From an uncultured Candidatus Saccharibacteria bacterium (lineage in GTDB: Bacteria > Patescibacteriota > Minisyncoccia > Phycocordibacterales > UBA9973): DNA of 64,000 bases. The stretch is from assembly GCA_964634365.1 (NCBI GenBank), contig CAZWJU010000001.1, forward strand, positions 21,858 to 85,857. Direction: 5' to 3'. Positions 10,109 to 61,830 of the stretch are shown piece by piece. The position numbers and the translations under genes are program-made. A model generated the notes under the pieces. The model searched no databases. It was not told the DNA's origin and saw only the letters and a program-made list of their open reading frames with translations. Numbering within the stretch: position 1 is the first letter of the stretch; each line of letters begins with the position of its first letter.

Positions 10109-11050
10109 ATGAAAAGCATAAAAAAATATTATTATTTTTTGCCCATCATTTTTTCCATTTTTCTCTCAAGCATCTTTTTTTTAAAAGGAGGTTCGAGTGA
10201 TAAAGATAATGTACCACAAAAAGTTGAGCGCGTAAGTGTTCACCACAGAGAGTACAAAAATCTCAAGCCCGAATTGAGCTACAGCCGTATATATTCAGAT
10301 CCTGAATTTGAGAATTTGAATATGCTGGGTACAGTATCAAAATACGGGGTTTATGGAGATGTTGGGAAAGTTCTCCGCGCCATGCGTTTTGAAAATATTT
10401 CAAACGCAGTTGAGAATAGGTACAATCTTCCGCATCACATGATCCTCGCTATGGTCATAGAAGAATCCAATGGCGTAGATCTCTTACCAAATGGACGCAA
10501 TGATGGAGGTTTCGGTCTCTGTCATATGCAACCAGCCACAGCCCATGAGTTTGGTTTAAAGATTTATGCGGACTGCAAGAAAATGGTCTGCGAAGAGCAT
10601 GCTCTGGAATTGAAAAATATTTTAGAGAAGAATAACTTTGACCGAAGTAAGGTGCAAAAGTATGACGACAGGTTTAACCCGATCTTAAATTTGGATGCAG
10701 TCGGAAGAATGCTGGCAAGTTATATGGACGGTCCAAAAATTAAAGGCTTAGGTCCTGGTCGTACTGCAATATGTAGATACGCTGGCAAATACAACTACAG
10801 CCAGTATTGGGCTGATGTAAGACGTAACATGAACCTGTTGTCTGATGAAGAATTTATGAAAAAAGTTGAGGATGCTTTCAATAAAGCAAATCCAAACTTA
10901 GTCATAAATGGCGAAAGAGGGGATTTCGATTCATATATCGCTACATCAGCGGAGCAGGCCTACAACTACGGCTTGGGAGAGTATTTAAAACTCCCGAAAT
11001 ACCTGCCCAAAAATTCAGAAATCGTTTTGGCAACAATAGATGATTTCTAA
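10109..11050 (+). CDS. secreted lytic-transglycosylase-like protein (SLT-domain-like)
   Basis: Start moved to the MKSIKKYY Met, since the ORF-track start overlaps miaA. N-terminal signal/TM. ES...GGFGLCHMQPATAHEFG resembles the SLT catalytic Glu and GLMQ motif. Confidence 0.45.
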   Translation: MKSIKKYYYFLPIIFSIFLSSIFFLKGGSSDKDNVPQKVERVSVHHREYKNLKPELSYSRIYSDPEFENLNMLGTVSKYGVYGDVGKVLRAMRFENISNAVENRYNLPHHMILAMVIEESNGVDLLPNGRNDGGFGLCHMQPATAHEFGLKIYADCKKMVCEEHALELKNILEKNNFDRSKVQKYDDRFNPILNLDAVGRMLASYMDGPKIKGLGPGRTAICRYAGKYNYSQYWADVRRNMNLLSDEEFMKKVEDAFNKANPNLVINGERGDFDSYIATSAEQAYNYGLGEYLKLPKYLPKNSEIVLATIDDF

Positions 11051-11115: not shown

Positions 11116-11490
11116 TTGTTTAAAAAACAAGTTATGAGCGAAAAACTTAATAAAGATTTTTTTGAAGGTAAAACACCCAGATATCTTCTGAATGAATTGA
11201 TGACTCCATCAAGACCGATTGATCAAAAGTGGCAGATCATTTTACACATCGAACAAAATTTTATTGATCCCAAAGCAATGCTTGCCGAATCAAAGAGGAA
11301 GCTTGAAGGACAGAATCTGCCGGATTCAGTAATAAAAAATATCTTGTCTGCTCAAAAAACAGCCGTAGATATATCTATGTCGCTTTTGAATCTCGACCAG
11401 ATAAACGGAATGGCAGATATCGATAAAGTTTTCGGCCAGATGAAGGAAGTTCATGGGGAAGAGGCCTATTTGGAGGAGGGTAAAATCTAG
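11116..11490 (+). CDS. hypothetical protein
   Basis: 124-aa ORF with no recognisable motif. Confidence 0.35.
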   Translation: MFKKQVMSEKLNKDFFEGKTPRYLLNELMTPSRPIDQKWQIILHIEQNFIDPKAMLAESKRKLEGQNLPDSVIKNILSAQKTAVDISMSLLNLDQINGMADIDKVFGQMKEVHGEEAYLEEGKI

Positions 11491-11502
11491 TATTTTTACC
11501 CC

Positions 11503-11531
11503 TTGACAAAAAAATAGCGATATGCTATACT
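11503..11531 (+). promoter_or_regulatory. near-consensus sigma70-type promoter (TTGACA-17-TATACT)
   Basis: -35 TTGACA at 11503-11508, 17-nt spacer, -10 TATACT at 11526-11531. No protein-coding ORF follows before a strong terminator. Confidence 0.5.
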
Positions 11532-11538
11532 CCTTGCA

Positions 11539-11782
11539 GATCAAATACAGCACATGCCATACAGCGTAGGAATTTTCAGGTTCTACGTGACGGTCAGTCA
11601 GCTGTTGTTCATTTTTAGGGGCCTAATGCGATGCACTTATTGCTATGCAATCAGCCCCATTGCCCGGATGATATATTCTACGCAGAGAACAACATCTGAT
11701 TAGGTAGGTCATTTACCTGAAGAATTTGAAGCAAAGCCCCGTACAGCCCTCTGTAAAAAGAGACATAGTACGGGGCTTTTTT
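11539..11782 (+). ncRNA. candidate small structured RNA (about 245 nt) bounded by promoter and intrinsic terminator; identity unknown (6S-like length)
   Basis: No credible ORF (only 24-26 codon frames without an RBS). GC is higher than its surroundings. Terminator stem aaagccccgtac...gtacggggcttt plus T-tract at 11733-11782. 5' (GAATTTTCAGG) and 3' (CCTGAAGAATTT) segments are complementary. Confidence 0.4.
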
Positions 11783-11835
11783 GTTGACAAAAAATACACG
11801 CAAGATATATTTAAGTTAAATAAATTGTTATCTTT

Positions 11836-12408
11836 ATGAGGAGAAATATTTTGCCAGCAGAATTCTTCCAGTCGAGGAGTTATGAAGATCTGTTAATTAT
11901 TTTAACTAGATCTATTTATACCGATGAAGAGAGACGACAGATAATTGACTACTTGATCGAGAATTATGAAGAAAAGATGATGCTCGACGCTGTCGGCATG
12001 ATGCCCACACCACTTGAACATATGCGCACGTATCGTCTTCCAGAGCGATACCAGAAAGGGGTGAGGATTATTGATATAGTGCAAGATTTGATTTCAGGGG
12101 AGGTCAGTCAGACAGAAAATGTAGATATATATAATTTTTTTCTGCATAATTTCAAAACCCCTTCTCAAGTTTTAGAAGATGCGTACGATAAAGTTGATGC
12201 AGACTTCAAAATTTCAAGAGAAGATGAAGAGATCAAGAAGCTTGCGATCCTTGTCTCTATGACAATAATCCAAGAGATCGGAAATGCCATTCAGAATGAT
12301 ACGATGAACTCTGATGTAAACATTAGGTTTATCGTAAACAGAAATTTGGATAAATTTGAAGATGTAAAGAGGAGAAGGCAAAAGATTTCTGTACGTAAAA
12401 AGGCGTAA
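11836..12408 (+). CDS. hypothetical protein
   Basis: 190-aa ORF. Own promoter-like TTGACA at 11784. Terminator downstream. Confidence 0.4.
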   Translation: MRRNILPAEFFQSRSYEDLLIILTRSIYTDEERRQIIDYLIENYEEKMMLDAVGMMPTPLEHMRTYRLPERYQKGVRIIDIVQDLISGEVSQTENVDIYNFFLHNFKTPSQVLEDAYDKVDADFKISREDEEIKKLAILVSMTIIQEIGNAIQNDTMNSDVNIRFIVNRNLDKFEDVKRRRQKISVRKKA

Positions 12409-12436: not shown

Positions 12437-12463
12437 GATTTTATATATTTGAATATTGTGTTA

Positions 12464-12693
12464 GTATATTTTTGAAATTACCCGGGTGGATATAAAGCAA
12501 ACTGCTTTGCTTTATATCCGAGCATAGCGAGGTGGCCGACACCCGGGCAATGTTTGCGAAGCAGATCAAAAATACGAAGTATATTTTTGAAATTGCCCGG
12601 GTGGATATAAAGCAAACTGCTTTGCTTTATATCCGAGCATAGCGAGGTGGCCGACACCCGGGCAATGTTTGCGAAGCAGATCAAAAATACGAA
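12464..12693 (+). repeat. two tandem 115-bp repeats, each a tRNA-Leu acceptor-like mini-element (5' GCCCGGGTGG ... 3' ACCCGGGCA) with an internal perfect 12-bp hairpin
   Basis: Unit gtatatttttgaaatt-GCCCGGGTGG-ATATAAAGCAAA-CTGC-TTTGCTTTATAT-CCGAGCATAGCGAGGTGGCCGACACCCGGGCA-atgtttgcgaagcagatcaaaaatacgaa repeated at 12464-12578 and 12579-12693. A third unit starts at 12694 and runs into a tRNA-Leu 5' fragment. Confidence 0.8.
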
Positions 12694-12709
12694 GTATATT
12701 TTTGAAATT

Positions 12710-12760
12710 GCCCGGGTGGCGGAATGGTAGACCTGCCTGCCGGCAGGCAGGCGCAAGGGA
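12710..12760 (+). other. tRNA-Leu 5' fragment (acceptor, D-arm and anticodon-stem 5' strand) interrupted by a 19-nt perfect palindrome
   Basis: GCCCGGGTGGCGGAATGGTAGAC-[CTGCCTGCCGGCAGGCAGG]-CGCAAGGGA matches positions 1-31 of the intact tRNA-Leu at 13006, apart from the palindromic insert. It diverges exactly at the anticodon-loop boundary. Confidence 0.7.
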
Positions 12761-12767
12761 TATAAAT

Positions 12768-13001
12768 ATGTATTATGTATATGCTCTAAAAAGTTTAAAT
12801 AGAAATTATATATATGTTGGCTTAACAAATAATCTTGATCGTAGATTTAATCAACATAATTCTGGATAGGAAAAGACCACGAGAAGCTACGCACCTTTTG
12901 TTTTGCTTTATAGTGAATATCACCAAACAAGAGCAAGTGCTAGAATAAGAGAGAAGTATTTGAAATCTGGTTCCGGAAAAGAATTTTTGAAATCGATATA
13001 A
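12768..13001 (+). pseudogene. GIY-YIG nuclease family gene (YhbQ/UPF0213-like, about 77 codons) with an in-frame TAG at 12867-12869
   Basis: MYYVYALKSLNRNYIYVGLTNNLDRRFNQHNSG-[TAG]-EKTTRSYAPFVLLYSEYHQTRASARIREKYLKSGSGKEFLKSI is one continuous frame, homologous end-to-end to the intact paralog at 28898-29140. TAG is a normal stop elsewhere in the window, so a nonsense mutation is the likely explanation. Confidence 0.6.
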
Positions 13002-13005
13002 ATAT

Positions 13006-13089
13006 GCCCGGGTGGCGGAATGGTAGACGCAAGGGACTCAAAATCCCTCGATGGCAACATCATGAGAGTTCAAGTCTCTCCCCGGGCAC
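13006..13089 (+). tRNA. tRNA-Leu (anticodon CAA), long variable arm, CCA not encoded
   Basis: GCCCGGGTGGCGGAATGGTAGACGCAAGGGACTCAAAATCCCTCGATGGCAACATCATGAGAGTTCAAGTCTCTCCCCGGGCA. Followed by a long hairpin terminator at 13090-13130. Confidence 0.85.
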
Positions 13090-61531: not shown

Positions 61532-61830
61532 CTTGTTGGTAACTTCCTCTGTGATTTTGAGGGTCTGCGATATGATCGTCTGGAATAATAGCGGTTGAAA
61601 TGCTATTATTTATTTACAAGTTAATAGCAAGTAGTAGCCTAAACCATTGGTAATTCCTATCAATGGCATGGCGAAAAGTCCTTGGAAGATAAAGAACCCA
61701 TCATGTGGGGTTTGTCTTCCAAGGCCGTATCGGGAAACTGGTACGGAGGGTTAAAACCCTCGACCATGTGGTGGGCTTTTTGTATACAATTTAGTCCATC
61801 CAAAAATTATTAATACTAAATAAAATAAAT

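Follow-up and report, generated by a model that had tools for sequence, protein, structure and literature searches.

An orphan promoter-terminator unit in a Candidate Phyla Radiation bacterium is probably a small-protein gene with conserved RNA structure

Background

Dual-function coding small RNAs such as SR1/SR1P, RNAIII/hld and SgrS/SgrT are short transcripts that combine a strong promoter and a terminator with a small open reading frame (ORF) and conserved RNA structure. The toxin mRNAs of the type I systems aapA1/IsoA1 of Helicobacter pylori (PMC5416894) and hok/Sok are each transcribed on their own, at a length of about 250 nt, and encode peptides of no more than 60 residues. Conserved pairing joins their 5' part to the 3' end, there are competing local hairpins, and the predicted fold is compact and stable. 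The AapA1 transcript, of 250-253 nt, is stable and poorly translated owing to a long-distance interaction between its 5' and 3' ends (PMC5416894). Here we analyse a unit that resembles both groups in these respects, located in a 64-kb stretch of contig CAZWJU010000001.1 (the whole stretch is referred to as the window) from a bacterium of the Candidate Phyla Radiation (CPR). A sequence-only reading of the window had presented the unit as a candidate structured small RNA of roughly 245 nt with no plausible ORF. We consider it probable that the unit is a ~245-nt independently transcribed mRNA for a lineage-restricted protein of 49 or 50 residues, with a conserved cis-acting RNA fold.

The unit differs from the described systems in several ways. 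Unlike in aapA1/IsoA1 and hok/Sok, no antisense RNA is detectable here, the pairing falls on codons 7-10 and not on a Shine-Dalgarno (SD) sequence, and the peptide is weakly hydrophobic, strongly basic and unrelated in sequence to known toxin families. Unlike in SR1/SR1P, RNAIII/hld and SgrS/SgrT, no trans target can be predicted and the conserved segments pair in cis. To our knowledge, almost nothing is known of post-transcriptional control and small proteins in CPR organisms.

A small reading frame conserved in four lineages

The unit lies in a gap of 345 nt between a gene for a 118-amino-acid (aa) protein (11134-11490) and one for a 190-aa protein (11836-12408), both on the + strand. As the window carries miaA, parB, clpB, topA and five tRNA genes, it is chromosomal; the bacterium belongs to the CPR. 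With the 190-aa neighbour and MiaA as anchors, the syntenic gap was recovered from relatives in four further distinct forms: L014, its near-twin L024, L003 and L016. The L003 sequence is identical in L004-L013 and the L016 sequence is identical in L017. The comparison set thus consisted of five distinct gap sequences in four lineages (the window, L014/L024, L003-L013 and L016/L017). The relatives carry the labels Candidatus Pacebacteria or Nomurabacteria; for one of them there is a complete 705-kb genome (CP064973.1). Activated sludge is a habitat of the lineage, for example in the samples behind SRR12487045, SRR12486993 and GCA_016699365.1. All recovered forms retain the ORF described here, the terminator, the complementarity between the ends and two promoters that each match the consensus at 11 of 12 positions.

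An ATG-initiated ORF of 49 codons is present within the unit (Table 1) and conserved in the relatives, with a length of 49 or 50 codons and the same start, stop and frame in all four lineages. The homologues of the peptide given in Table 1 read MPYSVGIFRFYVLVTQLLFLPVAGMVCSYCYTHDPLYRIIKSAQKTTSG in L014, MNPYYVGAFRFYEVVIQLLFFFKGSMRCTYCYAKDPVARILKSMQQTTSG in L003 and MPYNVGIFRFYALAIQLLFIFKGVRRCTYCYSRNPLRRILHSMQRTTSG in L016. Over the 150 nt of the ORF the sole indel is an in-frame insertion of 3 nt, compared with several indels in the ~30-nt 3' untranslated region (UTR) of the same sequences. When alignment columns were shuffled, all four lineages stayed open in 0.24% of trials; when the observed substitutions were redistributed at random in a simulation, they stayed open in 1.7%. 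The ratio of nonsynonymous to synonymous substitution rates (dN/dS, Nei-Gojobori) was 0.31-0.50 in the frame of the ORF versus 0.7-1.3 in the shifted frames.

The coding signature was clearest in codons 12-15 and 20-45, which lie outside the helix segments considered below. Here the proportion of synonymous differences (pS) was 0.46-0.87, the near-saturation level of miaA and the flanking genes, and that of nonsynonymous differences (pN) was 0.27-0.42, with pN/pS of about 0.4-0.7. Synonymous variation was seen at seven of the eight conserved degenerate residues of these codons. Pro35, for instance, is encoded by CCC, CCG, CCT or CCA and Ser42 by TCT, TCC, TCA or TCG, and the motif C-x-Y-C-Y is retained despite TGC/TGT and TAT/TAC codon changes. 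On the strength of these comparisons, the small ORF is very probably translated.

A conserved small ORF with a ribosome-binding site, identified by comparison, is what the sequence-only reading had named as evidence against itself. Its central noncoding claim fails because a conserved small ORF is present; this ORF has no ribosome-binding site, but the genome does not make use of SD motifs. An SD motif (GGAG or GAGG at -20 to -4) was found upstream of none of the 42 window ORFs of at least 150 aa, versus 6.8% of random positions, and a missing SD is therefore no argument against coding. In agreement with this, a subgroup of the Parcubacteria is reported to have lost the anti-SD motif (PMC9297842). 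The initiation context of the small ORF is typical of the genome, with no SD and with a leader as short and A-rich as in other genes. For several of these 42 ORFs the ATG follows a TATAAT-like box after only ~7-15 nt, a spacing that suggests that some mRNAs of the window have very short leaders or none at all.

Among the assemblies examined, the ORF had been called in only one: the NCBI annotation of CP064973.1 lists the homologue as a 50-aa hypothetical protein, the L003 copy being IPJ63_02895.

The ancestry of the locus is mosaic. The window and L024/L014 differ very little in the 118-aa gene and in the 5' end of the small ORF (dS 0.16; window 11134-11590), whereas miaA (dS 0.91), the 190-aa gene (dS 1.9) and the rest of the small ORF are strongly diverged. 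This pattern, with dS of 0.16 in the 118-aa gene versus 0.9-1.9 in the flanking genes, points to a recombination breakpoint within the small ORF, near codon 11/12. Hypervariability of the middle of the ORF was considered for the comparison of the window with L014 and rejected, as the breakpoint better explains the divergence. L014 and L024 have no differences in the ORF and 10 in the flanks.

Promoters and terminator

The near-consensus promoter described by the sequence-only reading (TTGACA-17-TATACT) was confirmed. The -10 hexamer TATACT (11526-11531) is preceded by a TG extension (11523-11524), and the site matches the consensus at 11 of 12 positions; only five sites with this score occur on either strand of the 64-kb window. 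Both hexamers and the TG are invariant in the five distinct homologues, and the spacer varies. The start of transcription is predicted at about 11538, 7-8 nt past the -10 box. The resulting 5' UTR contains an AAAUACAGC that is invariant in alignment A6, is mostly unpaired in the minimum free energy (MFE) fold and has no SD.

The strong intrinsic terminator proposed some 240 nt downstream is likewise present. It consists of a G+C-rich 12-bp stem (11733-11744 with 11768-11779), an inner hairpin of CUCU (11749-11752) and AGAG (11759-11762), and a U6 tract (11777-11782). A simple terminator scan overlooked it because 23 nt separate the two arms of the stem. Across the homologues, four pairs of the stem are changed on both sides in a compensatory manner. 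The terminator is not bidirectional. Its apex, the 21-nt segment GCCCTCTGTAAAAAGAGACAT (11746-11766, + strand), shows no change in any of the five homologues and is found at a single place in the window. This segment contains the inverted repeat CTCT-N6-AGAG, remains invariant while the lower terminator stem covaries, and is followed ~20-40 nt downstream by the -35 box of the promoter of the 190-aa gene. It might be bound by a protein or an RNA.

The 190-aa gene has a promoter-like site of its own at 11784-11811, as the sequence-only reading had noted, and it matches the consensus at 11 of 12 positions in all four lineages. The G+C content of the unit is raised (0.44 versus a window mean of 0.378), so that the earlier remark on elevated G+C holds as a modest effect, with neighbouring genes reaching similar values. 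Taken together, the conserved signals support a stand-alone transcription unit of ~245 nt, from about 11538 to 11782.

Nucleotide constraint and predicted pairing

We compared synonymous variation between the codons that fall in predicted helix segments (codons 2-11, 16-19 and 45-48) and the rest of the ORF. A synonymous change was found in one of 15 conserved degenerate codons of the helix segments versus seven of eight elsewhere (Fisher p = 2.5e-4; p = 0.008 without L014), and in the adjacent 190-aa gene at 49 of 64 (p = 7e-7 versus the helix codons). The pS of the helix codons was 0-0.16. The frozen stretches of the ORF have their complements either in one another or, in the 3' UTR, in an invariant ACCUGAA. 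Because their synonymous sites are frozen, comparison of the homologues shows selection on the nucleotides of the helix segments; the pairing itself, and the exact fold, are predicted.

The complementarity between the 5' and 3' parts that the sequence-only reading had pointed out was borne out in this analysis. The two strands, here called P1, close the MFE fold of the window and are both conserved. ACCUGAA is the sole invariant run of an otherwise variable and indel-rich 3' UTR, and it complements UUCAGGU in codons 8-10. Across the five sequences 94.7% of P1 is paired, and one pair varies among U-G, U-A and C-G. A second helix, P3, is formed by two strands that are each other's only reverse-complement match (at most one mismatch) in 64 kb. 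It is found in the MFE folds of all four lineages and is 86% paired across the five sequences.

In L014 and L016 the MFE solution is a local 5' hairpin, CGUAGGA (11565-11571) with UUCUACG (11581-11587), in which the 5' strand of P1 forms the loop; in these two folds the AACC of the 3' island pairs locally. Two competing conformations of the 5' end are thus plausible from the models. The predicted core is a three-way junction, and P3 and two hairpins recur in the single-sequence folds of the four lineages. The fold of the window was better than that of shuffled controls, with z = -4.4 with the terminator and -3.0 without it, and the z values for the core were -3.0 in the window, -4.7 in L003, -3.6 in L014 and -1.6 in L016.

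The earlier suggestion of a 6S-like rod was not upheld. No Rfam family reached its threshold, and the covariance model of 6S RNA (RF00013) had no match even at E <= 10 in a 701-nt search. Unlike 6S RNA, the predicted core is a three-way junction and not a rod with a central bubble, and the sequence is under protein-coding selection. At gathering thresholds, an Rfam scan of the whole window returned only a LOOT RNA and five tRNAs, all elsewhere. A permissive scan of 11300-12000 gave sub-threshold matches only; these were mostly driven by the terminator and fell in the flank before the promoter, the 3' UTR, the terminator and the downstream promoter. Of the proposal of a structured small RNA of ~245 nt, the stand-alone unit and the constraint at the RNA level are retained, and the noncoding part is given up, as a conserved ORF was found.

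Table 1. Positions of the elements of the unit, and of one further RNA element, in the window
Feature	Position	Strand	Details
sigma-70-type promoter	11503-11531	+	-35 TTGACA 11503-11508, 17-nt spacer, extended -10 TGcTATACT 11523-11531
Predicted 5' UTR, ~16 nt, A-rich	11538-11553	+	includes invariant AAAUACAGC
Small ORF, 49 codons and TAG, ATG start	11554-11703	+	peptide MPYSVGIFRFYVTVSQLLFIFRGLMRCTYCYAISPIARMIYSTQRTTSD
Local 5' hairpin (predicted), codons 4-12	11565-11587	+	CGUAGGA/UUCUACG; arms invariant including synonymous sites
P1 5' strand (predicted), UUUUCAGGU, codons 7-10	11573-11581	+	pairs with 11715-11723 in MFE folds of window and L003
P3 5' strand (predicted), CAGCUGUUGUUC, codons 16-19 (QLLF)	11599-11610	+	invariant in all homologues including synonymous sites
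Variable three-way-junction arms (predicted), P4 11618-11658 and P5 11661-11684, codons 22-44	11618-11684	+	part of the ORF with a clear coding signature
P3 3' strand (predicted), GAACAACAUCUG, codons 45-48	11687-11698	+	invariant in all homologues including synonymous sites
P1 3' strand (predicted), ACCUGAAGA, 3' UTR	11715-11723	+	alignment A6, 3'-UTR block, pair counts
Intrinsic terminator	11733-11782	+	12-bp stem, inner hairpin, U6
LOOT RNA (Rfam RF03000), full-length	61636-61761	+	92.7 bits versus gathering score 46.4, E = 2e-16

The predicted peptide and its distribution

The peptide is moderately hydrophobic in its N-terminal half and basic, with a CxxC motif, in its C-terminal half. The maximum of the Kyte-Doolittle profile over 19 residues is 1.3-1.9, in a segment that includes Arg9, Gln16 and, in L003, Glu13. 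The net charge of the tail is +3 to +8.

Database searches returned hardly any relatives of the peptide. A word-index search of 5.8 billion protein clusters gave the L003 copy as the sole match, and HMMER searches of 1.84 billion representatives gave only that copy and two weak matches to long repetitive proteins. No credible match was found in Pfam, NCBIfam or PHROGs. Neither the small protein nor its 190-aa neighbour had a match in JGI metagenomes, no copy was found in IMG/VR, and blastn of phage and plasmid records gave no match. The sole return from GTDB species genomes, L015 4419-5465, was rejected as homology: it is a chance match to GLMRCTYCY inside a Cys-rich protein of 348 aa, which was taken to be transposase-like.

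The whole block is absent from the farther relatives L019, L020, L022 and L027 (MiaA 67-70% identical), which have a tRNA-Leu between miaA and parB in its place; the contig of L018 stops too early to show the locus. By nhmmer the window holds a single copy of the element, with none at these distant loci. The element is single-copy, syntenic, patchy across genomes and confined to one clade. The small-protein family is new and restricted to a narrow CPR subclade, and our best guess is that the protein is membrane-associated or binds a partner.

Interpretation

If the unit is an mRNA for a small protein, its expression might proceed as follows. The near-consensus, extended -10 promoter would start a short monocistronic message and the strong intrinsic terminator would end it, as judged from sequence and conservation. 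Translation would begin without an SD at the AUG at 11554, on a short, A-rich and unpaired leader, a mode of initiation that seems to be usual in this genome. The coding region would fold on itself, with codons 16-19 pairing with codons 45-48 in P3, and codons 7-10 would either pair with the 3'-UTR ACCUGAA in P1 or occupy the loop of the local hairpin, a structure that begins 12 nt after the AUG, just inside the ribosome footprint. Closure of the 5' and 3' parts, together with P3, would compact the message. Structure and closure of the ends may limit or time initiation and may shield the short message from RNases.

A number of points weigh against this interpretation. Transcription, transcript ends and translation are all deduced from the DNA. 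Every statistic comes from a small sample of only four independent lineages (five distinct sequences), and the window and L014/L024 are not independent in the recently recombined 5' segment that they share. Within the small ORF, codon-position bias is weak, with 17, 21 and 28 variable columns at positions 1, 2 and 3, and dN is high. The AlphaFold2 (AF2) model of the peptide is a single helix of low confidence, with a predicted local distance difference test (pLDDT) score of 68, and the searches of 5.8 billion and 1.84 billion proteins gave no homologue outside the clade.

Other points concern the fold. P1 and P3 are almost invariant and offer little true covariation. The registers of P4 and P5 shift between lineages, with weak column-wise covariation and 56-77% of cells paired. 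The consensus from RNAalifold, with three or with five sequences, differs in part from the single-sequence folds, and our structural claims are therefore limited to P1, P3 and the terminator. Since the predicted folds leave the AUG itself unpaired, it is not obvious that the structure is inhibitory.

Small-protein genes with mRNAs that are selected for structure are a kind of object already known. A sequence that could pass for a textbook small-RNA orphan most likely holds a small-protein gene that annotation has missed, and it offers a compact case in which selection on a protein and on RNA structure overlap in a CPR genome without SD use. If the fold gates translation, it would be an example of mRNA structure controlling initiation where there is no SD to sequester. 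We recommend annotating the ORF in genomes of the clade and not registering the element as a noncoding RNA family. A further step is conceivable and, in our view, doubtful: this could be the first description from the CPR of a type I toxin-like or dual-function coding RNA, with a 5'-3' interaction that gates translation by occluding the first codons in place of an SD, and with an unseen RNA partner that recognises the leader AAAUACAGC, the P1 and P3 strands and the 21-nt terminator apex.

Alternative interpretations

The most attractive rival to a small-protein mRNA with a cis-acting fold is a type I toxin-antitoxin-like locus, in which the 49-residue product would be a membrane-active toxin, its mRNA kept inert and stable by the 5'-3' pairing until processed, and a small RNA would act as antitoxin. 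The size of the peptide and its N-terminal hydrophobic helix fit such a toxin, as do the stand-alone ~245-nt unit, the conserved (predicted) P1 pairing with competing local hairpins, and the patchy occurrence of the element in one clade only; frozen synonymous sites would be expected of a base-pairing target. However, the hydrophobic segment is weak (1.3-1.9) and has polar and charged residues inside it, and the peptide matches no family in Pfam, whose curated families include Hok, Ldr and Fst. The start codon is left out of the pairing, which involves early codons, and the locus is single-copy and syntenic and does not lie on mobile DNA. Signals for an antisense RNA were also lacking: between the promoter and a point 60 nt inside the next gene, none of the four lineages has a minus-strand promoter-like site of at least 9/12, and the terminator does not work in both directions. 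No complement of the conserved segments was found elsewhere in the 64-kb window, which leaves room for a trans-acting RNA encoded outside the window or for an atypical promoter. We regard a toxin-antitoxin locus as unlikely.

The coexistence of coding and RNA-level constraints would also be expected of a dual-function small RNA, whose transcript encodes the peptide and acts in trans through invariant single-stranded or loop segments. The very strong promoter and the dedicated terminator agree with this, and the protein gives no reason for the invariance of the leader AAAUACAGC or of the 21-nt terminator apex. The invariant coding segments, however, complement one another, so that structure in cis suffices to account for them; no complementary target occurs elsewhere in the 64-kb window, and no known RNA family is matched. 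A role in trans is accordingly quite unlikely in our estimation.

For a purely noncoding structured small RNA, in which the ORF would be accidental, one may cite the stable fold (z of -3 to -4.7 in three of the four lineages), the conserved helix strands, the weak codon-position bias and the fact that gene callers skipped the ORF in most assemblies. An accidental ORF would not be expected to remain open, in frame and of the same length in four lineages despite near saturation of synonymous sites in its variable half, nor to be free of out-of-frame indels over 150 nt when the adjoining ~30 nt of 3' UTR have several. Residues are conserved while codons change, and pN/pS falls below 1 in the ORF frame only. 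No Rfam family reached its gathering score, and the ORF and core at 11538-11660 were unmatched even at E <= 10. These results make a noncoding RNA very unlikely.

A leader peptide with a transcription attenuator controlling the 190-aa gene, to which the order of small ORF, terminator ~30 nt later and gene directly downstream, syntenic in all lineages, might point, is highly improbable, as that gene has its own 11/12 promoter right after the terminator in four lineages, no antiterminator pairing is conserved (the window's candidate competitor GGGGC is GGAUC in L003) and the 49-codon ORF, unlike known leader peptides, is conserved at the amino-acid level.

Neighbouring features

Between miaA and the 118-aa gene, the window and the L003-type genomes carry a gene for an SLT-like transglycosylase (10109-11050 in the window). 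L016/L017 and L024 are without it, and an 85/120-aa homologue directly adjoins miaA in these genomes.

The LOOT RNA listed in Table 1 is the sole non-tRNA Rfam match in the window; a literature search on this family returned almost nothing.

Downstream of the 190-aa gene, a 115-nt unit is perfectly duplicated in tandem (12463-12577 and 12578-12692), with a 32-nt palindrome in each copy. A 24-nt copy of the 5' end of tRNA-Leu follows at 12709-12732, identical to 13005-13028. Next comes an ORF for a GIY-YIG nuclease, apparently split by a stop near 12870, and then an intact tRNA-Leu(CAA) gene at 13006-13089. In L004 and L006 the corresponding position is occupied by an intact GIY-YIG gene of 77 aa. 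The segment 12463-13089 looks like a GIY-YIG mobile element inserted at a tRNA gene.

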